DNA of 64,000 bases from Akkermansiaceae bacterium (GCA_043758615.1 JAYVNE010000199.1:5-64004); one strand, 5' to 3'. Positions 37,920-59,609 are shown, numbered from the stretch's first letter. Program-made: numbers and translations. The notes: generated by a model not told the origin, from the letters alone.

Positions 37920-37956
37920 AAATGAGACTTGCGGAATGAATTCCGCGCTCCCGGTG

Positions 37957-39792
37957 TTAGCGCACAGCGCGGTCTTCGGTGCCTTTTTGAGCCCGCTTGC
38001 GGACGTTAGCGTCGAGGATGCGTTTGCGTAAACGGATGTTGAGCGGGGTGGCTTCGACGAGTTCGTCAGCATCGATGTATTCGATCGCACGCTCTAACGA
38101 GAACCGCAGGGCCGGAGTGAGCTTGGAGGTTTTGTCCTTACCCGACGAACGCATGTTATCGAGGTGTTTCTCTTTCACTGGGTTCACAGGAAGATCGCCG
38201 ACGCGTGGGTTTTCACCTACTAACATGCCGCCGTAAACCGCATCGCCAGGAGCGACGAAGAGGATGCCGCGGTCTTCGAGTGTTTGCAGGGAGAACGGGG
38301 TGGCGGTGCCGGAATCCATGGAAACGAGCGTGCCCGTGGTGCGGTTTTGGATTTCACCGGCGTGCAGACCGTATTCCTTGAAGAGGTGGGACATGATGCC
38401 GTGACCGGATGTTAGATTGACCAACTCGGTTTCGAAGCCGATCAGGCCGCGAGTCGGGATGGTCGCTTGAATGAAGACGCGGCCGGATGCCTCGGTGTCC
38501 ATGTGTTCCATCAGGCCCTTGCGGTTCATGAGGATTTTCAGGATGCCTTGGGTGTAGTCGCCAGGAGCTTCGACATAGAGTGTCTCGAAAGGCTCTAGCA
38601 GCTTGCCGTTGTCGTCGCGGCGATAGATCACGACCGGGCGGGAAACGAGGACTTCGAAGCCTTCGCGGCGCATTTGCTCTACGAGCACGGCGATCTGCAT
38701 GGCTCCACGGGCGGAAACGTTGAAGACACCCGACATATCGGTGTCCTCGACGGTGATAGAGATATTCGTTTTCAATTCGCGCATCAAGCGCTCGCGGATG
38801 GCGCGGGAGGTGACGTGTTTGCCTTCCTTGCCGGCGAGCGGGCCGTCATTGATAGAAAACTGCATCGACACGGTTGGCGGGTCGATGGCGACGAATGGAA
38901 GCGGTTCTTGTTCAGCGCTACCGGCGATGGTTTCGCCGATGTCGATGTTTTCAATACCAGCGGCGATGCCGACGATGCCGCCCGCGCCGCAACCATCGGA
39001 GTCGGCGGTGGCGAGGCCCGAGTAGGTGAAGGTTTTGAGGACCTTGGATTGCACCTTGGTGCCGTCTTGGCGAAGGAGGAAAATGGTGTCGCCCTTTTTC
39101 ACGCTGCCGCCGAGGACTTTTCCGACGGCCACACGACCGACGTATTCATCCCACTCGATGTTAGAAACGAGCATTAGGAACGGTGCCTCAGGGTCAGCAA
39201 TCGGCTCTGGGATGAACTCGATGATTTTCTTGAGAAGAGGAATACAATCTTTCCGCTCATCATCGGGATGGTCCATGAAATAGCCGTCGCGGGCGGAACC
39301 ATAGACGAAAGGCGCGTTGAATTGCTCGTCATCGGCGTCGAGGTCGAGGAAGAGTTCGAGCACTTGATCGTGAACCTTGAGCGGAGTGGCGAGCGGGCGG
39401 TCGATTTTGTTGATGACGACGATCGGCTTGAGGCCTTCCTGCATCGCTTTACGCAAAACGAAGCGGGTTTGCGCTTGTGGGCCACCGGAAGCATCGACAA
39501 CGAGGAGCACCCCATCGACCATTTTCATCACGCGTTCCACTTCGGCACCGAAGTCGGCGTGGCCTGGAGTATCGACGATGTTGATCGTGTAGCCTTCCCA
39601 GAGAATGGCGGTGTTTTTCGCCTTGATGGTGATGCCTTTTTCACGTTCGAGATCCATGGAATCCATTGCCCGCTCGGTGGTGGCTTGGTTTTCACGGTAA
39701 GTGCCGCCGGCTTGAAGAAGCTGGTCAACGAGGGTGGTTTTCCCATGGTCAACGTGGGCGATAATGGCGAGATTTCGAATTTTCAAGGACAT
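37957..39792 (-). CDS. typA: Translational GTPase TypA/BipA
   Basis: [42 protein letters not shown]-like [20 protein letters not shown]. Confidence 0.97.
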
Positions 39793-40057
39793 GGGAACAA
39801 GTGGATAAGATACGACCTCTGTGAGAAGGGGGGCGGGCTATGGACGGTTTTGGCGGTGATGGCAAGGCGGGATTCGGGATAAAAACAAATCGATGGATGA
39901 ATCATGAAAAAAGTGGATCATTTACTGACCTTGTGTTCTCAGAAGTCGCACATTTCAGTCGGCGATTGATGATTCAAAAGATCATAAGGCTTGAAATTCC
40001 GCATTGATTGAGCATAAACGCATTCGCGAGCCACTATCGCCCGCAATTTCACCCCTC

Positions 40058-41794
40058 ATGAGCGATTTGCACGCATCTGCCGGCTTTCTGGCACCTGACC
40101 CTGCCGAGCTGAACGAGCTCTTCCCGGGCTATGAAATCGAGAGCTTGATCGCCACCGGCGGAATGGGTGCCGTGTATTGCGCCGTTCAAAAATCGCTTGA
40201 TCGCACGGTCGCTCTTAAAATTTTGCCAAAGGAATTCAGCAAGGACGCCGCATTCTGTGAGGCCTTTGAGGCTGAAGCAAAGGCAATGGCGCGTCTCAAT
40301 CACCCGAATCTGGTTGGCGTTTACGATTTTGGCGAAGTGAATGACATGCTCTTCATCATCATGGAGTATGTGCCTGGAAAATCGATTTACCACTCCGCCC
40401 ACGGCCAAGCAATCGACCCAGGAGAAGTCAATCGGCTTGTCACGGATATCTGTAACGGCCTTGCCCATGCCCACGAGAACGGAATCATCCATCGCGATAT
40501 CAAGCCGTCGAATATTCTGCTAGATTTAAATGCCCGGCCGAAAATTGGAGACTTCGGCCTCGCACGTCCGATAGAACGCAAAGTACAGGAAGGTGAGGAA
40601 ATTTTCGGAACTCCACACTACACCGCTCCGGAGGTCGTGAATGACCCGCAATCCGTGGACTACCGCTCGGATATTTATTCCGTCGGAGTCCTCTTGCACG
40701 AGCTTCTCACAGGAAAGCTGCCTGCTGACGATCCGCGTCCTCCATCGGTGATTTCCCGATGTGATCCGCGTTATGATGTGATTGTCCGGCGAGCGACTCA
40801 TGTCGCCCCGGCAGGGCGCTATTCCAGCGCGGCTGAGATGGCAAAAGACCTCGCAATCATTGCCGCAGTATCAGGATCGCGAGGTGTCCACCCAGGAGTC
40901 GCCGCGAGCCATGGCCCAGGCGGTCCGCGCGTTGCAGGACCGATTCAAGCGCGGCGTCCGGTGAAAATTAAAAAATCATCGCACGCCCCGATGATTGTTA
41001 GGGTCCTGCTTTTGTTAGCGATTGGAGTCGGGGCCTACGTTTACCTCACCAAGCAGCAAGCCCCTGTGGTCGATGCTCCTGCGAAGCCCCAAAGCGCTGC
41101 CCCCGTGGAGCCAAGCGAGACAATCAAACCGCCGGTCGCTCCCGAACCCGCACCCGAAACGCAACTCGAAGCACCGCCACAAAAAGTCGAACCCAGCCCG
41201 ACTACCGAATGCACCATCGAGCCACTACGGCCAGAGCCCGAAGTCCCTGAGAAAGCAAGCACCCAGGCACTCCCTAAATTCGACGTCACTGGTTTTTTTG
41301 CAAAAGCTCGGAAAATCATGCAGGACCGCGCGAAACCTTACCTCACAGCGCATGAAACCGATCTGAAAACTAATTTTTCGTCGTTTGAAAGAACCCTCAA
41401 ACGCCAGGTTCGCAAACTTAAAGATGGGCGAGTCACAATGGAGTATAAGCTCGATATTGAAATCGCAAGTTGGGAGAAAAATGGTCCTACAATACCCCAA
41501 AAACTTGATGCCCTTCTCGCGAACATTCCTGACGCTGAGGAGGAATTGACCAAGCACCTTGAGAAAGAATCCGCCATCGAAGAAGCGTTCCAAAAATCGC
41601 TGATACCGCTCTCATCGACCTACAATTTAGGCCTCGAAAAGCAGATCGAACGGCTGAAGCTTGAAAACGACACTGCTGCTATCGTGCTCATCGAAGGGGA
41701 AATCCAGATGAACAAGCAATCTCCTGAACATTTCGCCGAGCTTATGATGGAGCTCCAGCCGAAAGTCCGTAATACATCCCGCAAAGCTCCGTAA
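40058..41794 (+). CDS. Hanks-type Ser/Thr protein kinase with TM helix and extracytoplasmic domain
   Basis: GGMGAVY, VALKIL, HRDIKPSN, DFGLAR, GTPHYTAPE, DIYSVG. Confidence 0.93.
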   Translation: MSDLHASAGFLAPDPAELNELFPGYEIESLIATGGMGAVYCAVQKSLDRTVALKILPKEFSKDAAFCEAFEAEAKAMARLNHPNLVGVYDFGEVNDMLFIIMEYVPGKSIYHSAHGQAIDPGEVNRLVTDICNGLAHAHENGIIHRDIKPSNILLDLNARPKIGDFGLARPIERKVQEGEEIFGTPHYTAPEVVNDPQSVDYRSDIYSVGVLLHELLTGKLPADDPRPPSVISRCDPRYDVIVRRATHVAPAGRYSSAAEMAKDLAIIAAVSGSRGVHPGVAASHGPGGPRVAGPIQARRPVKIKKSSHAPMIVRVLLLLAIGVGAYVYLTKQQAPVVDAPAKPQSAAPVEPSETIKPPVAPEPAPETQLEAPPQKVEPSPTTECTIEPLRPEPEVPEKASTQALPKFDVTGFFAKARKIMQDRAKPYLTAHETDLKTNFSSFERTLKRQVRKLKDGRVTMEYKLDIEIASWEKNGPTIPQKLDALLANIPDAEEELTKHLEKESAIEEAFQKSLIPLSSTYNLGLEKQIERLKLENDTAAIVLIEGEIQMNKQSPEHFAELMMELQPKVRNTSRKAP

Positions 41795-41862
41795 CTCGCT
41801 TTTTTTAGCCATCGAGGCCATACTTCCACTGGCGCACCGACTATTTCCATCTATCCTCGGGC

Positions 41863-44800
41863 GTGCCCCGAGTGAATAAGAACAACACCTCCCCTCCCAC
41901 ACCATCTGCCATTGTTTTACGAGGATGCCGCCAGCATAACCTGCAAAATCTCGACCTCGATATCCCTCTCGGGAAACTCACCGTAGTCACCGGCCCCTCA
42001 GGCTCCGGCAAATCCTCACTCGCCTTCCACACGCTCTATGCAGAGGGCCAAAGGCGTTATGTCGAAACATTCTCACCCTATGTCCGGCAGTTTTTCGACC
42101 GCATGGACAAACCTGCCGTCGATCACATCGATGGCATCCCCCCGGCAATTGCCATTGAGCAAAAAAATCACGTCCGCACGACGCGATCGACAGTGGGAAC
42201 GCTAACGGAAATTAACGATTATCTCAAACTTCTCTTCGCCCGTCTCGCCACCGGCCACGATCCTAACACGGGTGAAATCATCCGGCCTGATTCGCCCGAA
42301 TCCGCATCCATCTGGGCACGAGAAAATCTAGCAAAACAGGCGGTCCTCATCACTTTCCCGATCCCCGTTCCTGCCGATGCCAAACGCTCGGAACTCTTCC
42401 CATTCTTGAACTCTCAGGGCTACCTGCGTGTGCTTATCGCCGGAAAAATCCTGCGCACCGATGATGCAGCGGGATCAGAATTTATCCCGCCCGTCATTCA
42501 AGTCATCCAAGATCGGCTCGTCATCGCTCCTGAAAACGACTCCCGTTTACTCGAAGCATTCGAAGCTGCATTTCTCCTCGGTAAAGGCCACGCCACGATC
42601 TCGACCAGCGAACCCGCAGCGACTTCCCGCACCTTCAGCAGCACTTGGAGCAATCCGAAAACCGGCTTCACGCTGCGTCCGCCTACACCCGGACTCTTCT
42701 CATTTAATAGTCCGTTAGGCGCTTGTCCAAAATGCCGTGGCTTCGGCCGTGTGATCGGCATCGATCTTGAAAAAGCCGTTCCAGACCCATCTCTATCCAT
42801 CGCCAAAGGAGCCATCAAACCCTTCCTCGGTGAGCGCGGCGGCGAGTGCCAACAAGACCTCATCCGAAACTGCAGGGAACGTGGAATCGACACCAAAACG
42901 GCGTGGGAAGACCTATCCGAAGATGAGCGAGATTGGATTTACTACGGAGACCGTAGTACCGAAAACCTCTCTCCCGAAGCGCTTGAAGAACTATGGCACT
43001 CAGGTGAATGGTATGGGGTGAAAGGCTTTTTCGACTGGATGGAAACCAAAGCTTATAAGATGCACGTCCGCGTCTTTCTCAGCCGTTATCGTTCCTACAC
43101 CACCTGCGGTGCCTGCCGTGGCAAACGCCTGCAACCCGAGTCCCTCTGCTTCAAAGTCAGCGGCCGGTCCCTCCCTGATCTATGGGCTCTATCCATCACC
43201 GATCTCCTTCCTCTCATTTCCCTCCTCAAAGGTGAAATTGCGAATCGCCCGGTGGATGCCACGTTAGATCTTGTCGTGACCGAAATTGAATCAAGACTAG
43301 GATACCTCGATCAAGTCGGACTCGGCTATCTAACACTTGACCGCGCGACCCGCACCCTTTCCGGCGGCGAGGTGGAGCGGGTCAATCTAACCACCTGCCT
43401 CGGTGCCGCACTCACTGGCACACTCTTTGTTCTGGATGAGCCAACCGTTGGCCTCCACCCGCGCGATATTGATCGCTTGGTTGGAATCATGCATGACTTG
43501 CGCGACAAAGGGAATACCTTAGTCGTCGTCGAGCATGAGCAAACCGTGATGCTCGCAGCAGATCACCTGGTAGACCTCGGTCCCGGCGCAGGTTCGTTCG
43601 GTGGCAACCTCATCTATCAAGGCTCTCCCACGCATAAAGAATCTCAAATCTCAAATCTCAAATCTCAAATTCAAGCTGGCACCCTCCCGTGGCTTAACGG
43701 CACCAAATCTATCGCCACCCCCGCAAAGCGCCGCAAACCCGGAAAACAAACCCTTACCATCAAAGGTGCGACACGGCATAACCTGAAAAAACTCAATGTC
43801 GAAATCCCTCTCGGCCTTTTCGTCTGTCTCACGGGCGTTTCCGGTTCAGGCAAATCAACACTCGCCCATGATGTTCTCTATCTCAACCTTGCCCGCAAAC
43901 TCGCGCAGCAAGTCGATGGTGATCCCGCATCGATTAAGGATCTGCTAGGTTCACAACATTTGCACGGTGTAGAACTCGTCGATCAAACTGCCGTCGCACG
44001 CACTCCGCGTTCCACTCCTGCGGTTTTCCTCGGCGCTTTTGATCCGATCCGCCAACTTTTTGCGGTCACTCCAGAGGCCAAGGCCCGGGATCTAACCGCT
44101 GGATTCTTCTCATTCAACTCGGGCGATGGCCGCTGCGACCGCTGCGCCGGTAACGGCTTTGAAAAAGTAGAAATGCAGTTTCTATCCGACCTCTACGTCA
44201 CTTGTCCAGACTGCAGCGGACGCCGCTATAAATCCTCCACACTCGATTTACTCTATCTCGGCAAATCCGTTGCCGACATCCTTGATCTCACCGTGGTGGA
44301 GTCCATCACCTTTTACACCGCGACGACAGGCTTACCTCCGGCTCACACAAAGCGCCATCAGCAAATCATTAGATTGCTCTCACCGCTCGTCGAAGTCGGT
44401 CTCGGTTATCTCAAACTCGGCCAACCCCTCAACACTCTCTCCGGTGGCGAATCCCAACGCCTCAAACTCTGCCAGCTTCTCTCTTCAGCTGGAACGCAGG
44501 ATTCATCCCGCCCGAAGCTCCTCATCCTAGACGAGCCCACCACTGGACTCCATTTCTCGGACATCGAAAACCTGTTAGCCGTCTTCCAAAAGCTCGTCGA
44601 TTCTGGCCACTCGCTTCTCGTAATCGAGCACAACCTCGATGTTATTAAATCCGCAGATTGGATTCTCGACCTCGGTCCCGAAGCGGGACAACACGGAGGA
44701 CAACTCGTCGCCCAAGGCCCACCAGAAATCGTGGCGAACGCAAAAACCCCCACCGCCCAATTCCTCAAAAAAGCACTCTCCGGGACCGCGTGTCTTCAGA

Positions 44801-47484
44801 CTCGCTCTTCCTCTTCTCCATCAACTCTCAACTCTCCACTTTCCTCTAACTCCATCACCCTCCGCGGCGCACGCCACCATAACCTGAAAAATATTTCGCT
44901 AGATATTCCGCGTGATCAACTTGTCGTCATCTCCGGTCTATCAGGATCAGGCAAATCCACACTCGCATTCGATATCCTATTCGCCGAGGGCCAGCGCCGC
45001 TTCCTCGACTCCATGTCTGCCTACGCCCGCCAATTCGCTGAGCAATTAGAAAAACCTGAAATCGACCAACTCACAGGCCTTCCTCCCACCGTCGCCATCG
45101 AGCAACGCGTCTCCCAAGGCGGCGGAAAATCTACCGTGGCGACCGTCACCGAACTGTGGAATTTCATCCGACTGCTGTATTCAAAACTCGGCACACCCTA
45201 CTGCCCGGATTGTCATGTCCCCGTCGAAAAACAATCGATTTCTGCGATTGAGAACACCATCCGCGGTCAACTGAAAAAAGGCCCGGTCACCCTCCTTGCG
45301 CCACTCATCCGCAGCCGCAAAGGCTACCATACTGAAGTCGCCGAATGGGCCCTCAAGCAAGGTTTCACAAGACTCCTGGTAGATAAACAATTCAGGGACG
45401 CCGAGGGATTCACTCGTCTCGAACGTTTCAAGGAACACGATATCGACGTGGTTGTGGCAGCGGTTCCTAACCGCCAATCCCCCGATCTTCCTCTCTCCAT
45501 CGAGCGTGCTCTAACGATCGGTAAAGGACTCATCAAACTCTTCACGGCGGAAAAAAAGTTCGTTCTTCTCTCCACCAAATCAAGCTGCCCGAGTTGTAAC
45601 AGATCGTTTGAGGAGCTCGACCCACGGCTTTTCTCCTTCAACTCACCTCACGGATGGTGCCTCGAATGCCGTGGCCACGGTCGGGTTCCAAAACGCCGCC
45701 GAGCACTCGACGCGGCGCGTTTCGATTCCGTGTTAGAGGCCGAACTGGATGCCGACCGCGCACTTGAACGCATGGACGAGGTCGAACTTATCGTGTGCCC
45801 GCAGTGTCAGGGCTCCCGCCTCAATGATATCGCCTCCGCCGTTAGGCTAAGTGGCTGGGGAGTCTCGCCCCAGCCATCCACCGCCATCTCCGAACTAGGC
45901 CACCTTTCCATTGACGCCGCATCCGCCCATTTCTCCCAACTCAACTTCACCGAATCCCGCGAAACTCTGATCGCCCGCGACATCATCCCGGAAATCCGCC
46001 AGCGACTTTCGTTTCTACAGGAAGTAGGGCTAGGCTATCTACAGTTAGATCGCTCGGGTAACACACTCTCCGGCGGGGAGAGCCAGCGCATCCGGCTTGC
46101 TGCACAGCTCGGATCGAACCTGCGCGGTGTGCTCTACGTGCTCGATGAACCAACAATCGGCCTCCACCCACGCGACAACGCGGCTTTGCTCAAAACCCTC
46201 ATCGCCCTGCGCGACCAAGGGAATTCACTCATCATCGTCGAGCACGACGAGGATACTATCGCCGCCGCGGATCACCTCATCGACCTCGGTCCCGGAGCTG
46301 GCAGGCTGGGCGGTGAAATCGTCTATCAGGGCAAGCCGCCCACAAGTAAAAAGCCCGCCGCGAGATTCGCAAACTCCCCCACCTACCGCGCCCTCTCCGC
46401 CGTCATTCAACATCCGATCCGCGGTGCCCGCCGTCCCGTAAAAAAGGATCATCCTTTTCTTACTCTATCGGATTGCACGGCGAACAACCTCAAAAATGTG
46501 CAGGCGGCATTTCCGCTAGGGCGCTTGACGGTCCTAACTGGGATCTCGGGTTCGGGTAAATCCTCGCTCATGCATTCCTGCGTGGCAGCGCTTTTTAAGA
46601 ATGAAGCGAAGACAACGCGGATCAAGAAAACACAGCTTCCATTTGGAAAAACCAGCGGGGAAAAGACAATCAAAGCGTGCTATGAAGTGGACCAAAGCCC
46701 GATCGGCAAAACCTCCCGTTCCTGCCCTGCAACTTACGTGAAAGTTTTCGATCACATTCGCGCGCTCTTCGCTCAACTACCAGAAGCCCGCATGCGAGGC
46801 TTCGACGCCTCAAGGTTTTCCTTCAATACCGATGGCGGGCGCTGCCCAGAGTGCAAGGGCAATGGCCGCGTCAAGTTAGAAATGGATTTCCTCCCGAGCA
46901 CTTGGGTTCATTGTGAAACCTGCAATGGTCAACGCTACAATCCGGCAACGTTAGAAGTCACCTTTCGCCAGAAAAACATCGGCCAAGTCCTTGCCATGAC
47001 CATCGACGAAGCCTCCGCCTTTTTCGAATCCCAACCACGCATTGCTCACCCGCTCAAACTGATGGCGGATACCGGCCTCGGTTACCTGCAACTCGGTCAG
47101 GCTTCACCTACTCTATCAGGTGGCGAGGCCCAGCGCATCAAGCTCGTCTCCGAGCTCACCAAAGGGCGCGGCACCCGGGCCACGCTGAACAACGCCGCGC
47201 TCACCCAGCGCAATCTCTATCTGATCGAAGAACCCACCGTCGGCCTCCATTTGGAAGATGTCCAGCGGCTCATTGATGTGCTGCACCGCCTCGTCGATGA
47301 GGGCCACACCGTCATTGTCATTGAGCACCACATGGCCGTCGCCGCCGAAGCGGACTGGATCCTCGATATCGGTCCAGAAGCAGGTGAGGCCGGGGGAAGG
47401 ATCGTCGCCCAAGGCACACCGGAACAAATCGCAAAATCCCCAAAATCCCGGACCGCGCCCTTTTTGAAAATAGCGCTTGGATGA
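41863..47484 (+). CDS. uvrA: Double-length (tandem-fused) excinuclease ABC subunit A, 1873 aa
   Basis: Four Walker A motifs ([32 protein letters not shown]), four LSGGE signatures and the Zn-finger CxxC pairs of two UvrA units in one frame. Confidence 0.93.
43641..43668 (+). repeat. (ATCTCAA)x4 heptamer repeat, in frame inside uvrA
   Basis: Encodes [13 protein letters not shown]. Confidence 0.9.
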
Positions 47485-47649
47485 TTGCTGGGCGCGAAGG
47501 TGTGCCTAATACAACCAAGTTCGAACAAGTGATAGAATGCTTAGCAGAATGCCGTCAATGATCACCCCAAGGCCATAGGGACGATCCGGCCCGTCATCCA
47601 CCCAAGGCATCGCTTCGAGGACTTCAATCACCGTATCCCTACCAGCGGC

Positions 47650-47820
47650 AGTTTCCAATACGGCTACGTTCCCAATTCCACCCTCGGCGGCTACCAAGTC
47701 CTTAAAAAGTGGCTCAGCTACCGCGAGTCCGCCCTCCTAAGCTGCCCTCTCACCGCCGACGAAGCCCAACAATTCACCCACCACGTCCGCTGTGACGGGC
47801 AGGCGGACATCGTGGAATAG
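47650..47820 (+). pseudogene. Remnant of a type ISP-like restriction-modification enzyme C-terminus
   Basis: Translates TLGGYQVLKKWLSYRESALL..PLT.DEAQ, matching the GGYQVLKKWLSYR motif I recall for this family; no upstream gene body. Confidence 0.6.
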
Positions 47821-47947
47821 AGAGGCGCGGCTTTTGGGAGGCAAGGTCAGGCAGGAATGCGTGTGTCGCGGGGATTGTGGGAACGAGGGGATGGCGGGGA
47901 TAGACTGGCGTGATTGGGATCGGACCGATCACGGCCGGAGTGAATTC

Positions 47948-49408: not shown

Positions 49409-49581
49409 GAGTTGATGAGGTTAATATTGTGTTAGTTTAGGGGTGGTTTCAAAAAATAGATTCAATCGTTGTGGATGAAAAAGCGGAGTCGAAGGGAGCT
49501 GGAGGAAGTCAGTGCGGAGAGGGGGGCTGTGAGAGTTGAAGACCAGGCAGGAATGCCTGTATCACGCGTGGAATGCTGGTG

Positions 49582-50337
49582 TCATTTTGGGGGGAGTTGT
49601 TTGGCGAGGGCTTCGAGGACGGTGGTGGTTTTCAGGCCGCCGCTGTCTTTTGGATTGATGGATTTGCCGGTGAGCCAGGTGGTGAATTTTTTCTCGTCGT
49701 TGGTAGGGTCCTTGGAGGTGGCTTTGTAGGAAAGTTCCAGGATCTCGCCGCCGGGGTATTTCCATTCTTCGGCGGTGAGGTTGGCGGAATCGGGGAGTTT
49801 CCAGCGGCGGGCTTCGATTTTGGGAAAGGTGCGCACTGCGTCCCATGGGATTTGGTCGAGGCGTTCCTTGAGGAAATCTCGTTGGGGAAGGGAGAGCATT
49901 CCTCGGATCGAGTGCTGTTCGATGGCGGCCCTAACGGAAGCCATGGAGGGGCTACAGTCGATGGAATAGGCGGGAACTTTTTCTTCGCTGCCGATGGCGA
50001 CGTCGGTTTCCAGAGTGCCTGGGTATCTATCGGATTCGGGCGGCTGAGTAGTGGGGCGTTCCTTGACGGTGAAGGTCCAAGTCTCGCTTTTTTTACGTAG
50101 GCGCAGGATGAGGTGTTGGTCCTTGAGCAGGGTGAGCGACGGGGTGTCAAAAAAGTAGATCTCCATCGTGTCTTGCGGCGGAGTGGCATTGAGAGCGAGG
50201 GTGTTCCGAAGCTGCCCGGCGGTGGCGGTGTCCGGCGCTAGGTAGTGGAGCTCGACTTTCTGCCCCGCGGCGAGTGAGGCCGCTGCTAGACTGAGAGAAA
50301 CAAGGCGCGTTAGTAGGTGTTGTCCTGTTATATTCAC
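49582..50337 (-). CDS. Secreted CYTH-like (triphosphate tunnel) protein
   Basis: KVEL…IYFFDTPSLTL…LILRLRKK…TVKERP…ETD…LELSYK…KTTTVLE pattern; hydrophobic N-terminus; start codon inferred. Confidence 0.6.
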   Translation of the reverse strand: MNITGQHLLTRLVSLSLAAASLAAGQKVELHYLAPDTATAGQLRNTLALNATPPQDTMEIYFFDTPSLTLLKDQHLILRLRKKSETWTFTVKERPTTQPPESDRYPGTLETDVAIGSEEKVPAYSIDCSPSMASVRAAIEQHSIRGMLSLPQRDFLKERLDQIPWDAVRTFPKIEARRWKLPDSANLTAEEWKYPGGEILELSYKATSKDPTNDEKKFTTWLTGKSINPKDSGGLKTTTVLEALAKQLPPK

Positions 50338-50661
50338 GGATGGAGATGGAGGGGGCTGGGAGTGAATGGCGTGAAATACCACAAGGGCTCTTCCACATTT
50401 GATGTCTGATAGTGAATTCAAAACAAAAGCTTCGGAGGAACGCAAGGGGAAGAAATCATCAAATTCGGAGGTGTTGTTAGCTTTTGTTAAGTGTTAGTTA
50501 TAATTGGATGCACCGGCGCGAAATGCGGACTGTGGTGTGACGGAATTGTCACTTTTCCAGCAGAGCCGAAAAAGTTTCCGCAGAATCACGCATTGTCTTG
50601 CGGACGCGGGCGGGATTGGTTAGTCGATTGTCGGAGTGAGAATTGTCCGGCCCGAATTGAC

Positions 50662-51006
50662 ATGGCGCATCCTGTTTCCCGAACAGAGGGGCTCGGTTTG
50701 TTTGCAACAGCTGGCGCTCAGGTGTGGGTATCGCATCAGTGAGCTGTGCAGGGAGCTCGGCTGTTCTGAGGATATCTGCGGGAGGTTTTCGCACGGGACA
50801 TTGGACTGAGCCCGAAGGAATGGATGCGGCAGGAGCGCATGGTGGTGGCGCGGCGAATGCTGGCGGGCGGGAGAGCTCCGGACGAGGTGGCAGAAAGTTT
50901 GGGATTTGCGGTTGCGGATAATTTCCGGCGGGAATTCCGGGAGTTCTATCAGGTGCGGCCGGTGGAGTTCCAGCGGGAGAGGTGGCGGGGGGGATTTGGA
51001 GGGTAG
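50662..51006 (+). pseudogene. AraC-type HTH regulator, frameshifted
   Basis: CLQQLALRCGYRISELCRELGCSE / YLREVFARDIGLSPKEWMRQERM…VAESLGF…NFRREFREFY is split by a frameshift at ~50771. Confidence 0.7.
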
Positions 51007-51281
51007 GAGAGTTGAGAAGAGTTTACCGTAGTGGCGCAAAGGTCGCGAAGGGACGCAGAGGAAGACGTGGACTGGGGAAGAGGTTGATGGTTGATGCGGG
51101 AGGGCCTCGCAGATTTCCCAATGACTGCGATCGAAGGGTCTGGTGCCGCGATGATGGATAACTATTGATCATCATTTTAGGTGAGTGACCGGACGACGCC
51201 ATCGAATTGGGAAATTAGAGTTTTGTAATATAAATTGGACCGGGCCGCATCATAACTGCACAAGCTTTGAATCGAGGCTGA

Positions 51282-53750
51282 TTAATGAAAACCTGGAGCG
51301 TCAGAAATCCTGAACTCGCATCTGGCCACCGGCTTTTTTGTATTTTCGTCAAATTCCACCGTCATCCAACGTGCTCCGTCTTTTGCGACGATCAAAACTC
51401 GCCCGTAAGTGCGATGCTCGGCGAGAACTTTGGGTGCCTCTCTGCTTGTCTCGAAACGATCTTTTGGATCAGCCAGCAAGGCTCCGAACTCCGTCTTCCG
51501 TCCCTCAATGCCAATTACGAAATCCGGATAAAACCCTCTCCCGTTCTCCATCAGAACATTAACGGACCAAGGCTTGTCTGACGGATTCCGATGCCACCAA
51601 TTGACGAGGTTGTTAGGATCGCGGTCCAGCATCTGCGCGAAATCCCTCTCCCATCCGTTCATCTGTGGTGGTATGACACCGTAGATGTTCCTTGGCGAGT
51701 TAGGCAGGTAGTCAGGCGAAACCAGCTCAGTTGGAAGCTCGGCGGCTTCAATGATCTCAGCCGCTTCTGCCAGAGCCTTCTTCTGTGCTTCCCATAGCAG
51801 CTCAGGATGGGTGGCTAGGATCACGTCCAGGAAGTGAGCAACCTTCTCTCTATCATCTGCCTCAGACATGGACTCCTCGCGCATCACCATCTCCATCTTT
51901 CTCAGCAGTGACCGGCGTAATTCACGAGGATCCAGAGCCTTGTTCTTCAGTAGAGCCTTCTCGGCGGATAATGCGGCTTGAGTTGGGGATAGATCCGCCG
52001 CGAAGTTGAACTCTTGCTGAATCACATGGGTGAAAACGTCCAAAGTGCGCTTCTCCACTGGTATCCTGTTTCTCATCACCTCAAACAATTCCCGGGTCGA
52101 AACCATGAAGCGGTTTGCACAGTCCTCCTCTGTCACTTCGTTTTGAGCGGATACGACTTGAGTCTTGAATCCACGCGGCATCCCGGAGCGTAAGGCATAA
52201 CGTTGAATCCCTGTGGGACCGACCGCGTGTCTCGGAGGCTGATCCGGTGAATCCCCGCTGCCAGTTGCGTTGTCACCTCCGAAAAATTCGCTGAAATCAA
52301 AAGATGTAGTCGGTTCAAACTCCGGCGCATTCGGCTCATCGTCTGCTGCATCAAGACTTGGCGCTCCGCCTGTTTCCTGGCTCTCGAGTCCGAAGAGTTC
52401 GATTTGTCCGCGTTTGTCCACTCGCCCAACGCCGGACAGGCTTTCGCCAAACCGGAGGACAACCGTCGCAGTGCTGGCTTTGGCATACTCGGTTTGGATC
52501 GCATTGATCTTCTGGCCTGCAATGTCCAAGCCTGTCTGGGTTTCAGCGGATGCGAGAAAGACCAATCCATGTGTCAGTTCTTCTGGCAGGTTTTTGGCCT
52601 GTGCCCTACCTTGAAGAAGCCGATGCACACGAAGGATTCTGCCGACTAACTGAATGCCGAAGTCGGCGTCTCGACTCGCTCTCATGGAGACCAGTGTGAA
52701 AGCCCGTGGAGCGTCAAATCCGAGAGCGACTGCCATTTTGAAAATCAAAACCTCGCGGCGTGGTTCATTCGCCAGTGCCAGCAATCCGCTATCAGGTTCT
52801 TCCGCCGTATGAATTGCCACTTGCTCATCGGTGAAACCCATCCGCAATAGCCGTGCCTTCAAACGCTCCACGCTCTTTTCCTGAGAGTCCGCCTGCACCA
52901 GAAGCAGGGGCACCAGTGGCACCTTCATTTCCTCCAGCTTCCGCTTGATCCTGCGGTGTGCCGCCACTCCATCCCGGAGAGCGGTGCCTTCCAGATCCAC
53001 CAGTGCCTTCTTGTCGGCATCCACGAAATAGGCCGCGCATTTCACTCCTGTCTTGATTAAGCCCGCATCCACCGCATCCGGGCGGCTGACTCCGATCCGG
53101 TGAAGTTCGGCGATGCCCATGGCCTTCTCAAATGCCTTGATGTCCGAGTCATTCGGCGTGGCCGTGATCAGGATCGTATATTCGGGTTGCAAGACTTCGC
53201 GGAAAAACTTCGCTGCCAGCGTAGTCTCGCCGAATCCGAGGTGAGCTTCATCCACCACTACGCCGATGCGCTTACCCTGAGCACGCAGTTGGGTGATGAG
53301 AATGTCGATAGATGGGTTGAGATCGCCGCCCTTGCGGATGTTCCGCTTGTCCTTCACGCGCGTTGCTACTGCTCCCCATGTCGTGACAAAGACATCGCCC
53401 CTGCGGCTCATGCCGGGTTCACGGTCATCTGCTAGATCCCGCAACCTGAGGCCGCTGAACTCCTCCCGCAAAAACGCCTCCGTTTGGCCGACCACTCCCT
53501 TAAATGGTGCGAACCAGAACCAAACGACATCTTCCACATGGCTGAATTTCTCTACCATCGTCCCGGCGATCAACGTTTTTCCAGATCCCGTGGGTGCTTC
53601 GATTAACAGATATCCGTTATGATTGATCGCTCTTGCCCGGCTAACCGCATCCTCTCCCGCAGCTTCTAATAGCTCCCGAGTTGCCACGAAAAGATCGAAC
53701 CCGCTTTCTACCGCAGTCTCCTGAAATCCCTTGAGTGTCTTCTTGCTCAT
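51282..53750 (-). CDS. Type III restriction enzyme Res-like subunit (SF2 helicase + PD-(D/E)XK nuclease)
   Basis: APTGSGKT, VVDEAH, ITATP, IQLVGRILRV; C-terminal FYPDF…LADPK; starts 5 bp downstream of mod. Confidence 0.85.
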   Translation of the reverse strand: MSKKTLKGFQETAVESGFDLFVATRELLEAAGEDAVSRARAINHNGYLLIEAPTGSGKTLIAGTMVEKFSHVEDVVWFWFAPFKGVVGQTEAFLREEFSGLRLRDLADDREPGMSRRGDVFVTTWGAVATRVKDKRNIRKGGDLNPSIDILITQLRAQGKRIGVVVDEAHLGFGETTLAAKFFREVLQPEYTILITATPNDSDIKAFEKAMGIAELHRIGVSRPDAVDAGLIKTGVKCAAYFVDADKKALVDLEGTALRDGVAAHRRIKRKLEEMKVPLVPLLLVQADSQEKSVERLKARLLRMGFTDEQVAIHTAEEPDSGLLALANEPRREVLIFKMAVALGFDAPRAFTLVSMRASRDADFGIQLVGRILRVHRLLQGRAQAKNLPEELTHGLVFLASAETQTGLDIAGQKINAIQTEYAKASTATVVLRFGESLSGVGRVDKRGQIELFGLESQETGGAPSLDAADDEPNAPEFEPTTSFDFSEFFGGDNATGSGDSPDQPPRHAVGPTGIQRYALRSGMPRGFKTQVVSAQNEVTEEDCANRFMVSTRELFEVMRNRIPVEKRTLDVFTHVIQQEFNFAADLSPTQAALSAEKALLKNKALDPRELRRSLLRKMEMVMREESMSEADDREKVAHFLDVILATHPELLWEAQKKALAEAAEIIEAAELPTELVSPDYLPNSPRNIYGVIPPQMNGWERDFAQMLDRDPNNLVNWWHRNPSDKPWSVNVLMENGRGFYPDFVIGIEGRKTEFGALLADPKDRFETSREAPKVLAEHRTYGRVLIVAKDGARWMTVEFDENTKKPVARCEFRISDAPGFH

Positions 53751-53755
53751 ATCGA

Positions 53756-55636
53756 TCAGCCTTTCATTCCGAATCTCCGGGCCAGAACTTCCGGGATGGC
53801 TTCATGTTGGACGTTCCCAGCCCGGATGTGCTGGCGCAGCGCCTCCGGCTGCCACGAATAAATCAGCGCCTCGGTGAAATCCTTGACCGCTTTCCTCACG
53901 GCGGGAACCAGCTCCTTGGAAAAGCGCGGGACATAAACCAGTGCTGAATCCCCATTTGCCGATATGAGGAAATCTCCATCCCGGTAAGGCTCTAAAACGT
54001 CGCGATGAATCAGTTGGAGTGTCGTCCATACTTGCTCATGCTCGATATCTAGCAGTCTTCCTGGTGAAATGCGCTGGCACCTGAGGTAGGCGAAATCTCC
54101 ATCGAGAGCTTCGACATCCTTGGCTCCTTTGCGAGTCCGCACGCTGTAGCCGTCTATCAATCCTCTGACTCGGCGTGCGCAAACATCGCGACAGACGTTT
54201 TTCTCAGGTTCATCTTTGTTAGTTTCTGTGCTGGAAACCAGAATGAAGCGTCGTTCTCCATCATCCTCTTGATTCTGAGCCAAGACAGCTTGAGCAGTCG
54301 TTCCAGAGCCTGCAAAGAAATCTAACACCAAATCATCATCACTGGTCGTTTGCCGGATGAAGGCTTGAATCAGCGACAAGGGCTTGGGATAGTCAAAGTC
54401 CTTGTTGCCGAGAATTTCCTGCACGAGGGAAGTCCCTTCCGAAGTGCCGCCGACAATTGCGATTTCAATTCCTTCCGTGTCCAATTCTTCTCTCTCATCT
54501 TTCTTCAATGATGCGGGCATCAACCATGAGGAAAATGGCTTTTCAGATCGCTTGACCTCGGAAAGGTGCCGCTTGTAGCGCGGCTTGCCGTATCCAATTT
54601 TTTTGCCTACCCAAAAATCGAGTTCTTGATTCCAGAATTGTTGCTCCTCCCCTGTATTTCCAAATCGCAGATTCCGCGGAGCCGTTCCTTCTTTGATTGC
54701 GGCAATGAGTTCTTCTTTGGTTTGATAGCTGACGACTCTCTCCTCTTTTGGCCACAGCACTTTGTCCGCTTGGATAATTTGCTCCATCGTCAAACTTCTC
54801 AATTGTTGGCCGGGCTTAACCCTTTCGTTAGATGAAAATCGCCAGACATTATCCGGGTCACATGCATACCAAGTTTGAGATTTCGCATTAAAAATCGGAT
54901 AGAAGGTATTCGGGCGTTGCTTGTAGTTTTTATTTTGAACCAAGTTATCATTGTTCCAAGCTCCACGAGGATCATCATCTTCATTCGAGTAGGCTTCTGT
55001 AGTCTTTGTCTTCCCAGCGAAAGTGAATTCTGGATTCGCATAGCACAGCACGTATTCGTGATCCACGCTTCGGAAATACTCTTTGGAGTCATTCGCTCCA
55101 CTTCTTGTTCTCCATACAAAACTTCCCACACGCCGTCCCGGCATCACCTTATCGAGAAGCATTTCTAACTTAGCCCGACTTTGGTCATTGATGCAGACCA
55201 GCATGACCCCATCCTCCCGGAGCAAGTCACGGGCGATGACGAGACGTTGATAGAGAAACTCGATCCAGGTGGAGAAGCGCCACGAATCGTTTTCTCCGAC
55301 GAAGCTGTCGTTATAGACGAAATCCTTTTTCCCAGTGTTGTAGGGCGGATCAATCAGGATGCATTTCACGCGTCCCGCATAGGCCATGCGAAGATAGCGA
55401 AGGGCGTCGAAGTTGTCGCCCTCCACGATGAGATTCCTCCATCCGCCGGACGGCGCTTCTTGAGGCACGCACAGGTTCGGGACAAGATCGAGAGCTACGA
55501 AGTCGGCATTGATCGCCTTATCGCGGTCGATCTCGTTGGCTTCCCATACCAGACCGAAGCGGGTGCTGTCCCGACCGTCGCGGGTTTCTAAAAGGCGGAC
55601 AAGCTCGTCCTTGGAGAGGTGATCGTATTTGGACAT
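53756..55636 (-). CDS. Type III Mod-like N6-adenine DNA methyltransferase
   Basis: LIVEGDNFDAL, DPPYNTG, PKPLSLI, VLDFFAGSGTTAQAV. Confidence 0.92.
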   Translation of the reverse strand: MSKYDHLSKDELVRLLETRDGRDSTRFGLVWEANEIDRDKAINADFVALDLVPNLCVPQEAPSGGWRNLIVEGDNFDALRYLRMAYAGRVKCILIDPPYNTGKKDFVYNDSFVGENDSWRFSTWIEFLYQRLVIARDLLREDGVMLVCINDQSRAKLEMLLDKVMPGRRVGSFVWRTRSGANDSKEYFRSVDHEYVLCYANPEFTFAGKTKTTEAYSNEDDDPRGAWNNDNLVQNKNYKQRPNTFYPIFNAKSQTWYACDPDNVWRFSSNERVKPGQQLRSLTMEQIIQADKVLWPKEERVVSYQTKEELIAAIKEGTAPRNLRFGNTGEEQQFWNQELDFWVGKKIGYGKPRYKRHLSEVKRSEKPFSSWLMPASLKKDEREELDTEGIEIAIVGGTSEGTSLVQEILGNKDFDYPKPLSLIQAFIRQTTSDDDLVLDFFAGSGTTAQAVLAQNQEDDGERRFILVSSTETNKDEPEKNVCRDVCARRVRGLIDGYSVRTRKGAKDVEALDGDFAYLRCQRISPGRLLDIEHEQVWTTLQLIHRDVLEPYRDGDFLISANGDSALVYVPRFSKELVPAVRKAVKDFTEALIYSWQPEALRQHIRAGNVQHEAIPEVLARRFGMKG

Positions 55637-56040
55637 TCCTGGCAGGGGACGGGTCCTGCCAGGTGGACGGGGAGTGATAAAGTCGAGCTACGCCGACCGC
55701 AACGGCCTTTAGCCGTTCCCCGTAGGAGACGACCTGGACATGCGCCGCCGCCTCCCCGGCCTTTCGGTCGAGTTGGCGGCAATGTTGCGGTCATTGCCTA
55801 CCGCGTAGCTGGAGGTTTATCAGGCCTCGTCCGCCGAGGCGGACACGCCAAGTCAACCGGGACGAGGGGAGGCGAGCAAGGAAAGAATTCCCGGAGGCTG
55901 TTTGCAAAAAAAAGGGGACAAGCTTCCAGCCTGTCTCAGAGGGTCGGCATCCAGGCCGGAAGCCCGGATTCCAAAACAGCCAAGAGGGCCAATCTCCAAT
56001 TTTTAAAAAGCCTCGAAACATCGCCAAACCTTCGTTTAGC

Positions 56041-56454
56041 TCATTTGAAAGGATTCACCACCCGGACACCGCCGTAATCTTGGCCGCTATTGAGGTCTTC
56101 CGAATACAACGTGTGACAACCCAGTTCCTTGGCCGCAGAAATGATGGCTGCGTCCCAGTAGGAGATTTGATAGCGTGTGGCGATCCGGGTGGCTCGGACC
56201 ACGAGACCGGGAGTGATTGGCAACGTGGTGCGGAGTGCTAGCAATTCCAGATTCTCCATAGCCACCTCCAACGAAATCCCGAGCCGTGCCTTGGTGTAGG
56301 CAACACTGAAATACTCCTGCATCACCTGAGCCGAAAAACCCAAGCCGGGCTTGCGTAGCAGATCCAAGGCGATCTTCCGTTTTACTTGATCGTCCGGATG
56401 CTGCGACCCCGCGTAAAGCAGCACGTTAGAGTCGATGAAAAATTGGGCGATCAT
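56041..56454 (-). CDS. PIN-domain (VapC-like) toxin
   Basis: FIDSNVLLY, SAQVMQEY, SYWDAAII..A…C.TLYSEDL…VVNPF. Confidence 0.9.
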   Translation of the reverse strand: MIAQFFIDSNVLLYAGSQHPDDQVKRKIALDLLRKPGLGFSAQVMQEYFSVAYTKARLGISLEVAMENLELLALRTTLPITPGLVVRATRIATRYQISYWDAAIISAAKELGCHTLYSEDLNSGQDYGGVRVVNPFK

Positions 56455-56671
56455 AAATTTCGTGACGATGGACTTTGCCAACGGGGGAATCGGTGTTGCT
56501 GCCGCGGGAGAATGCTGCGACAAATGCCTCGGTATCGTCGGCAGGTGCGTCCTCCCGCAAGACAGTCTCTAAACCCTCAATGATGAGATTCTTGATGGTG
56601 GTGCGGCGGCGCGCGGCGGCGATTTTCGTCCGCTCCAAAATGCTGTCAGGTAAATCAACGGTAGTTTTCAC
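56426..56671 (-). CDS. VapB-like RHH antitoxin
   Basis: MKTTVDLPDSILERTKIAAARRRTTIKNLIIEGL; overlaps the toxin start. Confidence 0.8.
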   Translation of the reverse strand: MKTTVDLPDSILERTKIAAARRRTTIKNLIIEGLETVLREDAPADDTEAFVAAFSRGSNTDSPVGKVHRHEIYDRPIFHRL

Positions 56672-56846
56672 AAGAGGAATAAATGCGTGAATATAGTTTT
56701 ATGTCAAATCCTGTGTTGGATTTGTCCAAAGCTGATGCTCTCTGTGACGGCTCGGATGACGATAAGTTTGAAGTCGCCCAAGAGGATGAGTCTTGCGCTC
56801 TAGATTGGGGCTTGGAAGTTTTTCCCGTGGCGATTCTTCTTAGGGC

Positions 56847-59609
56847 GTGGCGGCGAAGAAGAAGGGCGATGAGAAAGGTGCGAAGAGCGACGGTCGCAGA
56901 CCGACGTTAGAGGGGGACGTGATCCGGATTCGAGGGGCGAGGCAGCATCATTTGAAAAATCTCGATGTGGCAATTCCTCGCGGGAAATTGGTGGTGGTGA
57001 CGGGGCCGAGTGGATCGGGGAAATCGTCGCTGGCGTTTGACACGTTGTATGCGGAGGGACAGCGGCGGTATGTGGAGTCTCTATCAGTTTATGCGCGGCA
57101 GTTTTTGGATCAGTTAGAAAAGCCGGATGTGGATTCAATCGAGGGGCTCAGCCCGGCAATCGCAATCGAGCAGCGGGGCGGGGGACTGAATCCGCGTTCG
57201 ACGGTGGCGACGGCGACGGAGATTTATGATTACCTGCGGGTGCTGTGGGCGGCGGCGGGGATTCCCCATGATCCGGCGACGGGTGAGCGACTGGAGCGGA
57301 TGAGTGCGGCGGACATTGTGAATGTGCTGGCGGCGATGGCAGAGGGGACAAAGGTGGTATTGTTAGCGCCGCTGCCGAAGGAAGAGCTGGGGGAGCCGGC
57401 GAGGTTGTTAGGAGACTTGCAGCGGCAGGGATACATCCGGGTGCGGGTGGATGGGGAGGTGTTGGAGATCGAAGAAGCGGCGGCGAAATGGCCGGAGTTT
57501 CCGGGGGCGGTGGAGATCGTGGTGGATCGGTTTGTGATCCGTGCGGGGGTGGAATCACGTTTGGCGGATTCGGTGGAAACGGCGTTGCGTCTATGCGGCG
57601 CGGAAGCACGGGCGGCGGTGCAGGGGCCGGGTGAAGAGGAGTGGCGGGATTTGGTTTTTCAAACGAGCTATCGCAATCCGCAGACGGGGTTCATGGTGGA
57701 GGATCTATCGCCGAAACATTTTTCCTTCAACTCGCACATCGGGGCTTGTGAGGCATGTGAGGGGCTGGGGACGGAGATGTTTTGTGATCCCGATTTGCTA
57801 GAGGAGGGCGTGGATGCGGAGGGGACTTTAAAGAGATATCGGGAGGCGAAGTCTGAGATTACGCGGCGGAAGTTAGGGAAGTTCATGGCGCATCGGCCTT
57901 GTCGGGTTTGTGGAGGGAAGCGGTTGAAGCCGGAGTGGTTGGCGGTGAAGATTGAGGGGAAGAATTTTGATAGTGGATGGTTGATAGTTGATAGAAAAGA
58001 GGGGATTATGAGAAACGCGGAGAACCCTTCTTCGCTATCAACTATCAACTCTCAACCATCAACCTCTTGGATGGGTATTCAGGATTTTTGTGCGCTGGGG
58101 GTGGCGGATGCGATGCGGTGGATCGAGGGGATCACATTTGAGCCGGGGAAGGCGGAGGTTTGTAGGCGCTTAGCGGACGATGTTTGCAAGCGGCTGGCGT
58201 TTCTGGAAGAGGTAGGGTTAGATTATCTAACGTTGGAGCGGACGAGTGGGACTCTATCGGGTGGCGAGGCGCAGCGAATTCGGTTAGCGACGCAGTTGGG
58301 TGCGGGGCTTTCGGGCGTGATCTATGTTTTGGATGAGCCGAGTATCGGGCTGCATGCCGCAGACACGGGGCGCTTGATCGGGGCGCTGCTGAGGTTGCGG
58401 GATTTGGGAAATACGGTGGTCGTCGTAGAACATGATGAGGAAATCATTCGGGCGGCGGATTGGGTGATCGATCTGGGGCCGGGGGCGGGCGCGGCGGGTG
58501 GTTATGTGATGGGGGAGGGGACGCCGTTAGAGATTATTTCACCGACGGGGGAGTGGTTGAGAGGGGGAGTCCAGAGGCAAGAATCTAGAATCAAGAAAGA
58601 TGGTGGAAGAGGGGAGTTAGTGATCCGGGGGGCGCGGGAGCATAATTTAAAAAATCTGGATGTAGCGATTCCGTTAGGGCAGTTGGTGTGTTTAAGCGGG
58701 CCGAGTGGGAGTGGGAAATCGACGCTGGCGGATTCGATTTTGCGGCGGGCATTGGCGCGGCATTTCAATGGGTCAGGTGAAACTCCGGGGAAGTTTGATC
58801 GGATCGAGGGACTGGAGCTGATCGAGAAATGCGTGGTGGCAGATCAGTCGGCGATTGGCCGCAGTCCGCGCTCGAATCCGGCGACGTTTACCGGCGTGTT
58901 TGACCAAGTGCGCGATCTTTTTACGAAGCTGAAGCTCTCGAAGCAGCGTGGCTACGGGGCGAGCCGTTTCAGTTTCAATGCGGCGGGCGGGCGCTGCGAG
59001 CGCTGCCAAGGGAACGGGCGCTTAAAAATAGAGATGCATTTTCTGCCGGACGCGTGGGTGGCTTGTCCCGCGTGTGGCGGGCGGCGCTTTAACCGCGAGA
59101 CGCTTGAGGTGACGTTCAAGGGGAAGTCGATCGCGGATGTTTTGGAAATGTCCGTGAGTGATGCGGCGGTGTTTTTCCGAGTGATTCCAAAAATTTTCCA
59201 CATCGTGCACATCCTCGAGGAGCTCGGGCTCGGCTACCTGAAACTTGGCCAAGCCGCGAACACTCTCTCCGGTGGCGAGGCGCAGCGGCTCAAGCTAGCG
59301 GTCGAAATGGCGCGACCGCAGGCAGCGCACACGCTCTATCTGTTTGATGAGCCCACGACCGGGCTTCACTTCGGCGATGTCGAGCGTTTGCTGGCCGCAT
59401 TCGTGAGGCTGCGGGACGCCGGGCATAGCGTGCTCGTGGTGGAGCATCATTTGGACGTGATCGCAGCGGCGGACTGGGTCATTGAGCTTGGACCGGGCGG
59501 GGGAGTGCACGGGGGAAACCTTGTCGCAGCAGGGCCGCCGGCGGTGATCCGCAAGAATAAGAAGTCGCCAACCGGGCAGGCGCTCGCGCGGCATGAGCGG
59601 AAACTTTGA
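56847..59609 (+). CDS. uvrA: Second, single-length excinuclease ABC subunit A paralogue
   Basis: [18 protein letters not shown] x2, LSGGEAQR x2, [16 protein letters not shown]. Confidence 0.93.
57976..58063. repeat. Inverted heptamer-repeat palindrome inserted in frame in uvrA
   Basis: gatggttgatagttgatag (57976-57994) … ctatcaactatcaactctcaaccatcaac (58035-58063). Confidence 0.8.

Follow-up and report, generated by a model that had tools for sequence, protein, structure and literature searches.

In a 64,000-nt stretch of DNA (hereafter, the window; 55% G+C) from an Akkermansiaceae/Luteolibacter-like member of the freshwater/sediment Verrucomicrobiota, the pentamers GTTAG and CTAAC are the two most over-represented ones. 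They form the flank-tolerant core of an asymmetric word family whose consensus is approximately TCTA[A/T/G]CA(G), or (C)TG[T/A/C]TAGA when read on the other strand. A first-pass annotation had noticed the pentamers at positions 37957-59609 and described them as a GNTAG/CTANC motif written into synonymous positions of genes. On balance, we lean towards the view that the window has been shaped by a fixation bias specific to the lineage, i.e., weak selection or molecular drive, for this one family of double-stranded DNA words.

Over-representation of GTTAG and CTAAC in the window

Pentamers of the window were ranked against a maximal-order Markov null. GTTAG was ranked first (93 observed versus 55 expected, z 8.0), and CTAAC was ranked second (54 versus 25.5, z 7.6). 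Synonymous-codon shuffles, which preserve both the protein and the codon usage, were carried out in 38 long open reading frames (ORFs); on coding strands, there were 61 GTTAG and 48 CTAAC words, versus 21.3 (z 9.3) and 20.1 (z 7.0) in the shuffled sequences. Over-representation is thus confirmed with both nulls (z 7.0-9.3), and with the second of them at synonymous positions. The bases that flank TTA codons in the window are not chosen independently of each other: G-TTA-G occurs 50 times, while each of the 15 remaining cells of the flank table holds 13 codons or fewer (odds ratio (OR) 8.7, Fisher p 1.7e-8). Pairwise junction preferences would yield only 33.5 G-TTA-G and cannot, therefore, account for the signal. 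We conclude that the pentamer as a whole carries the signal, both flanks being needed together.

The window contains 2.3 GTTAG/CTAAC sites per kb, distributed over nearly all genes. The enrichment is present in the interval where it was first reported but is not confined to it; it extends through the whole window and holds at loci of relatives, in 11 of which CTAAC is independently the top pentamer. The hand counts on which the first-pass annotation was based proved exact. In the uvrA paralogue at 56847-59609, 10 of 11 TTAG are GTTAG, and all ten are in-frame G-TTA-G (at 56906, 57113, 57362, 57407, 57872, 58217, 58283, 58526, 58616, and 58673); in the gene for a double-length UvrA at 41863-47484, 9 of 10 CTAA are CTAAC and 8 of 11 TTAG are GTTAG. 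Synonymous shuffles predict 4.3 sites of either orientation in the former gene, where 11 are found, and 3.9 in the latter, where the 17 sites occur in the phases G-TTA-G, GTT-AG, CTA-AC, and xCT-AAC. The typA gene carries five sites versus 1.1 expected, and orthologous sites vary among 76 species. The first paralogue contains mostly GTTAG and the second contains both orientations because their GC skews are opposite: the two genes lie on the same strand, and the skew is -0.17 to -0.24 at 42000-46000 versus +0.25 to +0.27 at 56000-60000.

The full form of the word

All 7- and 8-mers were scanned across the window against a full synonymous shuffle, and one family was found to head the list. Its members are TCTATCA/TGATAGA (36 observed versus 7.0 expected), CTAGCAG (24 versus 4.2), CTATCAG (24 versus 4.4), ATCTAAC (18 versus 2.4), CCTAACA (16 versus 3.0), TCTATCAG/CTGATAGA (16 versus 1.7), and TCTAGCAG/CTGCTAGA (14 versus 0.8). 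TCTATCA is also the top 7-mer of the window, with 41 copies versus 5.6 expected from base composition. The GNTAG/CTANC generalization was, therefore, nearly right, but too broad, since CTACC/GGTAG, when tested, showed no enrichment and hence lies outside the family, and too short, since the real words are 7-8 bp long and have flank preferences. Likewise, GATAG and GCTAG, which had been said to behave similarly together with their complements CTATC and CTAGC, are indeed enriched, but mainly within longer words (TGATAGA, CTGATAGA, and CTGCTAGA).

Sites that match TCTA[A/T/G]CA (TCTADCA below) occur in the window at 1.08 per kb, on the two strands in a 34:35 ratio and in all frames; five of the 69 are intergenic. 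The spacing of GTTAG/CTAAC sites is exponential. No information was found beyond approximately 3 nt on either side of the core, and there was neither a bipartite partner or longer motif nor any pairing, periodicity, or preferred distance between sites when these were looked for. The 5-mer core stands at 1.0-1.6 times its base-composition expectation, other TA-containing words being at 0.2-0.5. The best 7-mer exceeds its expectation ca. 7-fold and the best 8-mer ca. 12-fold, which argues for a genuine positive drive.

The bias operates at the level of double-stranded DNA

In long ORFs, the word is found in the phases G-TTA-G (50 sites), GTT-AGx (11), CTA-ACx (23), and xCT-AAC (25), i.e., in every frame that does not introduce a stop codon. 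The two orientations are enriched 3.3- and 2.8-fold on coding strands of genes of the + strand, and 2.2- and 2.05-fold on those of the - strand. Since both orientations are enriched in genes of either strand, there is no bias by transcription or towards the + strand. The raw + strand ratio of GTTAG to CTAAC, 93:54, is asymmetric because codon and amino acid content predict such an asymmetry; after correction for both, the enrichment of the two orientations on this strand is 2.6-fold and 2.5-fold. A check of strand polarity, which had been proposed along with the original observation, thus revealed both orientations equally enriched and no polarity in the window. The flank interaction is also evident in the non-ORF DNA of the window (26/25/32/100, OR 3.25, p 7e-4), and in non-ORF DNA of signal-positive genomes the OR is 4.7, versus 1.0 in that of signal-negative ones (see below for the two groups). 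Because all permitted frames, both strands, and non-ORF DNA are enriched, we conclude that the bias works on double-stranded DNA and not on translation. In doing so, it overrides a strong genomic avoidance of TA-containing codons (TTA, CTA, ATA, AGA, and xCT before A).

The completed word as the target of the force

Four-fold degenerate third positions were analyzed, with genomes positive and negative for the signal pooled separately. In positives, the base that completes the word was found at a frequency of 0.18 (T in C_AAC), 0.24 (A in CT_AC), 0.25 (T in GT_AG), and 0.21 (A in CT_TC), versus 0.02-0.10 in control contexts or negatives. In the window alone, the corresponding values were 0.31-0.39 versus 0.03-0.14. 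From a baseline of 0.03-0.07, the completing base climbs to 0.18-0.25 in the pooled genomes. It is increased five- to ten-fold, whether it is T (xCT|AAC, GTT|AG) or A (CTA|AC, CTA|TC), while the three alternatives shrink proportionally, and a comparison of positive with negative genomes revealed no neighbor word that is specifically drained. We conclude that the force bears on the completed word rather than along a single mutational path, which excludes a single deamination hot spot and lends no support to T-to-C repair of the very-short-patch (VSP) type. The first-pass annotation had likewise noted that the motif appears to be reached from both CCANC and CTGNC and that one deamination hot spot is insufficient. 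The typA alignment supports several source states: site 628 is occupied by CCAAC, CGAAC, CAAAC, or CTAAC, and site 1377 by CTGAC, CTCAC, CTTAC, or CTAAC.

The dependence on flanks is graded and resembles a position weight matrix, the probability of the completing T being 0.66 in CC_AACA, 0.43 in TC_AACG, and 0.00 in GC_AACC; in this it looks like a binding energy. In pairs of positive species at 91% identity, GTTAG is retained with a frequency of 0.74, versus 0.45 for other NTTAN words, while in negative pairs the values are 0.49 and 0.52, respectively. The resulting loss-rate ratio of ca. 0.37 is that predicted under selection or biased fixation with an odds boost of ca. 6 (S ~1.8); the ratio would be 1 if a hot spot did no more than create the word, and ca. 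0.17 if the word were protected and nothing else. This pattern fits a fixation bias on a protein-recognized word.

Distribution and dialects among relatives

To compare genomes, a frame-free statistic, OR = GTTAG x HTTAH / (GTTAH x HTTAG), was calculated with both strands counted for the window and for loci of ca. 20 kb around homologues of UvrA2 and typA. The window has an OR of 5.9. Loci of UvrA2 homologues at least 64% identical (64-82%) yielded values of 3-48, while ca. 60 more distant UvrA2 loci, which serve as a negative control for a generic coding artefact, yielded 0.4-2. In the typA sample, which comprises 76 species, the signal is patchy even within one genus-level cluster whose TypA proteins are more than 95% identical. 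It is strong in L010 (OR 24), L014 (23), L001 (6.9), L058 (35), and the isolate Luteolibacter pohnpeiensis KCTC 22041 (11), and absent from L004, L008, L009, and L016 (0.6-1.7). No substitute favored word was found in signal-negative genomes when one was looked for. We conclude that Akkermansiaceae/Luteolibacter-like Verrucomicrobiota alone carry the signal: many relatives are positive, whereas some close ones and all distant ones are negative. Two mutually related, distant loci (L105 and L106; UvrA2 54% identical, 46% G+C) have 14 TCTAACA each versus ca. 3-4 expected, together with a weak 5-mer signal; the range of the long word may, judging by these two, extend past the Akkermansiaceae-like clade.

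The favored form of the long word differs between lineages. One dialect is rich in TCTATCA and TCTAGCA (41 and 18 copies in the window, 25 and 12 in L083, 10 and 5 in L001), and another in TCTAACA (21 copies in L042, 18 in L044, 14 in L065, 11 in L022). The ratio of TCTATCA to TCTAACA is 41/10 in the window versus 3/21 in Luteolibacter pohnpeiensis (L042; Fisher p 2e-8). The dialects track TypA clusters, which suggests that the specificity is passed on vertically, evolves as it is, and has been lost repeatedly. CTAG, chiefly as CCTAG and ACTAG, is scarcer in signal-positive than in signal-negative genomes (0.16 versus 0.26 of expectation); CTGCTAGA is nonetheless enriched in the window.

Sequence near-identical to the window is present in sediment metagenomes. 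A polymorphism test on contigs from public runs gave no usable spectrum of single-nucleotide polymorphisms, the contigs being nearly identical to the window. Scans for close strains in which substitutions could be polarized reached at most 82% amino acid identity in metagenomes and at most 90% nucleotide identity in genomes.

Interpretation of the signal

A fixation bias of this kind could arise if the word were recognized by a protein that reads DNA sequence, is inherited vertically, and can evolve, and whose activity makes word-bearing alleles likelier to fix or less readily lost. Lineages in which such a factor disappeared would have lost the word fast, because the underlying avoidance of TA erases it. 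The likeliest mechanism, in our judgment, would be a self-DNA mark for DNA uptake or recombination, akin to the uptake signal sequences (USS) of Pasteurellaceae or the DNA uptake sequences (DUS) of Neisseriaceae, and possibly read together with methylation, as in the CtsM/RAATTY system of Campylobacter jejuni. A selected site of an abundant chromosomal protein, a methylated self-mark, and a drive by uptake or recombination all give the same pattern, and cannot be separated. A bolder proposal, which we regard as possible rather than probable, is that Akkermansiaceae/Luteolibacter-like Verrucomicrobiota have a novel sequence-specific self-DNA recognition, being either a third independent invention of uptake signals or a motif-directed system of gene conversion or marking, whose word co-evolves with its reader, gives rise to dialects, and is repeatedly lost.

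Several observations weigh against a fixation bias driven by a reader protein. No reader factor was identified in the 64-kb window or in the ca. 20-kb loci, and competence is, to our knowledge, not documented in this clade. The over-representation (ca. 7-fold for the best 7-mer, ca. 12-fold for the best 8-mer) is modest beside that of known uptake sequences, and, with the 5-mer at 1.0-1.6 times its compositional expectation, some of the effect might be interpreted as the word being spared from TA avoidance. The intergenic inverted pairs in which USS and DUS are concentrated have no counterpart here, given the few intergenic sites (5/69) and the exponential spacing. Increased retention was demonstrated for the 5-mer core only: the 7-mers were retained at 0.56 (n = 28) versus 0.49, and this extra retention is not significant. 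Finally, positive and negative genome groups were set by the statistic itself, and the species are phylogenetically non-independent.

Among the alternatives, an origin like that proposed for HIP1 of cyanobacteria, in which a DNA methyltransferase recognizes the word and VSP-type repair converts near-cognate mismatches to the cognate site, so that sites accumulate, appears rather unlikely to us. It would accommodate a lineage-specific and patchy signal with related variant words (HIP variants were reportedly described by Elhai in 2015), strand symmetry, and presence in both coding and non-coding DNA; moreover, the 8-mers finish in CAG, as do many one-strand N6-methyladenine targets of MmeI/BREX-type enzymes. 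However, the word (GTTAG/CTAAC, TCTADCAG) is not palindromic, and the VSP logic needs T-for-C variants (TTAAC/GTTAA, CTAAT/ATTAG) to be depleted, whereas none of them is singled out and all alternatives fall proportionally, which lends no support to the methylation-directed repair suggested in the first-pass annotation. As for a co-occurring methyltransferase, also suggested there, the sole methyltransferase seen, a Type III Mod protein of the adenine/N4 class, has homologues of 74-79% identity on signal-free contigs, and the island that bears its gene is missing from otherwise identical populations. That the Type III restriction-modification (R-M) system at 51282-55636 recognizes the word as its target is highly improbable, even though such systems read asymmetric, adenine-containing sites of 5-6 bp and the genes lie inside the interval originally reported. 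Contigs with Mod homologues 79% and 74% identical, and 72-80% identical across the target-recognition region (L161-L163), have ORs of 1.6, 0.33, and 0.16. The R-M island has approximately zero depth in four sediment metagenomes (X1-X4) whose contigs match 39.7-49.8 kb at ca. 100% identity, and is therefore strain-variable, while the signal is clade-wide; in addition, restriction targets are usually avoided, not enriched. With homologous Mod contigs free of the signal and the island variable among strains, the R-M system was rejected as the cause.

Context-specific mutation, in which a hot spot creates the word (CCAAC>CTAAC deamination, GCTAG/GTCAG>GTTAG) or chemical protection shields the word from the erosion that affects other TA words, is also unlikely. 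It is true that GC>AT transitions are the commonest mutations, and that a 5-mer near base-composition level, set beside the low frequency of other TA words, can be read as local escape from erosion. Yet two phases are completed by T and two by A, with equal boosts, and the alternatives show no preferential loss of C; the idea of one source word or one deamination path was rejected since no neighbor word is specifically drained. A pure hot spot predicts an unchanged loss rate and pure protection needs a ca. 6-fold lower one, whereas the observed loss is ca. 2.7-fold lower, and the best 7-8-mers stand 7-12-fold above base composition. Translational codon-context or codon-pair bias, e.g., one that favors TTA where the preceding codon ends and the following codon starts with G, could be invoked for the 50 of 61 GTTAG that are in-frame G-TTA-G, which codon-pair-preserving shuffles would trivially reproduce. 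This explanation, to which we assign a very low probability, is already contradicted: coding strands are just as enriched in the reverse complement, which lies in two other frames, non-ORF DNA carries the signal, both flanks are required at once, and the signal is missing from close relatives whose proteins are the same and whose codon usage is similar. An equally poor candidate is a polar signal of the Chi or KOPS type, read by AddAB/RecBCD or FtsK, although the word resembles Chi in its short length, asymmetry, richness in G and T, and variation among species, a gene for an AddB-like nuclease is present, and raw + strand counts differ. The Chi-like reading offered in the first-pass annotation was rejected because no polarity is seen in the window, either in the corrected enrichment or in the strand ratio of TCTADCA given above; neighboring sites show only a weak excess of the same orientation, as local skew predicts.

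Likeness to known systems

The fixation bias that we favor leaves a word resembling HIP1 and uptake sequences, as had been proposed from the outset, inasmuch as it is a lineage-specific iterated word. Like USS and DUS, it is short and asymmetric, occurs approximately once per kb in both orientations, is embedded in coding DNA where the protein permits, is poor in imported DNA, and is lineage-restricted with dialects between related lineages; we know of no uptake specificity documented in its phylum. It is shorter (5-8 versus 9-12 nt) and far less over-represented (ca. 7-12-fold versus 100-fold or more), and, while USS and DUS are frequent in intergenic inverted-repeat terminators, this word is not. 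Dialects of DUS have been documented (PMC3630211).

HIP1 (GCGATCGC) and its cyanobacterial variants share with the word its lineage specificity, its iteration at synonymous positions in genes, the variants in related lineages, and a proposed link of its origin to methylation or repair. HIP1 is, however, a G+C-rich palindrome of very high copy number, whereas our word is asymmetric, contains TA, is moderately enriched, and lacks depletion of the VSP type; no cognate methyltransferase was identified for it in the 64 kb and the ca. 20-kb loci covered, and the one Mod present does not track the signal. In Campylobacter jejuni, methylation of RAATTY by CtsM is a self mark in transformation, where a short, abundant motif suffices since methylation rather than rarity gives specificity. 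Specificity borne by methylation would reconcile a word of 5-7 bp with a discrimination function. RAATTY differs in being palindromic and suited to an AT-rich genome. Chi sequences (AGCGG in B. subtilis, GCTGGTGG in E. coli) are, like the word, short, asymmetric, over-represented, and species-variable, but strongly co-oriented with replication. VSP repair of E. coli, with its gain of CCWGG and loss of CTAG, provides another case of genome-wide shifts in short words caused by a sequence-specific DNA process; it changes T to C at a single position in a single site, whereas the gain observed here favors T or A, concerns several positions, and has no single source word.

Over-represented words have exposed hidden DNA transactions before, USS and DUS leading to uptake specificity and Chi to RecBCD control, while HIP1 is still unexplained. 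A comparable word family is now at hand in a phylum where none was known, and full-text searches of the literature on these words, on Akkermansia/Luteolibacter methylomes, and on Verrucomicrobia uptake sequences gave no prior description. The system is tractable: there are close species with and without the word, lineage dialects, and, in Luteolibacter pohnpeiensis KCTC 22041, a signal-positive strain in culture, so that the factor responsible can be sought by phylogenetic profiling and tested in methylome, uptake, and binding assays. Since the force installs rare codons that are otherwise avoided (up to 66% CCT in the Pro-Asn-A context), it is relevant to codon-usage models, composition-based binning, and detection of horizontal transfer in abundant freshwater/sediment bacteria.

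Other features of the window

Features of the window are listed in Table 1. The integron was considered because the attI/attC core, GTTRRRY, resembles GTTAGR and the motif had been reported from the attI core. We judged this link to be coincidental, since the enrichment is found in housekeeping genes genome-wide, the GATAG and GCTAG words do not fit GTTRRRY, and the long word is scarce on the cassette side, where a single TCTADCA occurs in 5.85 kb (0.17 per kb versus 1.08 per kb for the window). Such scarcity is as expected for imported DNA not yet imprinted by the host. Word density in the R-M island is normal, with six TCTADCA in 5.3 kb.

Table 1. Position, strand, and content of features of the window.
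Feature	Position	Strand	Remarks
Whole window as signal domain	1..64000	both	147 GTTAG/CTAAC and 69 TCTA[A/T/G]CA sites
Integron cassette side	1..5850		Divergent ORFs 5067-5672, 2433-4868 (TSP3 repeat), 1554-1877, 1208-1501
Integron integrase	5852-6841	+	TIGR02249, 319.5 bits versus cut-off 265; chromosomal integron
PD-(D/E)XK nuclease	12770-15508		912 aa; weak AddB similarity, no AddA adjoining
Example pair of long words	22737..22800	+	TCTAGCAG at 22737, TCTATCAG at 22794
Insertion sequence (IS)-type DDE transposase	30929-32095		PF01609
Cluster of long forms	34325..34378		Three TCTATCA (34325 +, 34340 +, 34372 -) within one ORF
Region of first-pass annotation	37957..59609		33 GTTAG, 17 CTAAC, 31 CTATC, 18 GATAG, 13 GCTAG, 6 CTAGC
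typA/bipA (TypA/BipA)	37957..39792	-	Pfam/NCBIfam; 2 GTTAG and 3 CTAAC on coding strand
Ser/Thr protein kinase	40004-41794		Directly upstream of double-length UvrA
Double-length UvrA	41863..47484	+	1873 aa; Pfam/NCBIfam; 8 GTTAG, 9 CTAAC
R-M island	51257-56576		Type III R-M genes
res	51282-53750		PF04851; Type III R-M
mod	53756-55636		PF01555; Type III R-M
uvrA paralogue	56847..59609	+	920 aa; Pfam/NCBIfam; 10 GTTAG, 1 CTAAC (58227)

The double-length UvrA consists of two complete UvrA-like halves, and its homologues are common across metagenomes. Some Logan contigs join the two uvrA paralogues (42676 to 57709) or the halves of the long UvrA (42110 to 45076); these joins are most likely assembly chimeras over similar ABC-ATPase segments and not real deletions. 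In the window and L001-L080, avoidance of several palindromes is very strong: GTAC (15 versus 71.5 expected), CCWGG (34 versus 61-66), GTCGAC (1 versus 15.7), CGATCG (16 versus 38.7), GGCC, GGCGCC, CCGCGG, and GCCGGC. Avoidance of GTAC is common to most related loci. The avoidance of palindromes probably reflects restriction pressure.

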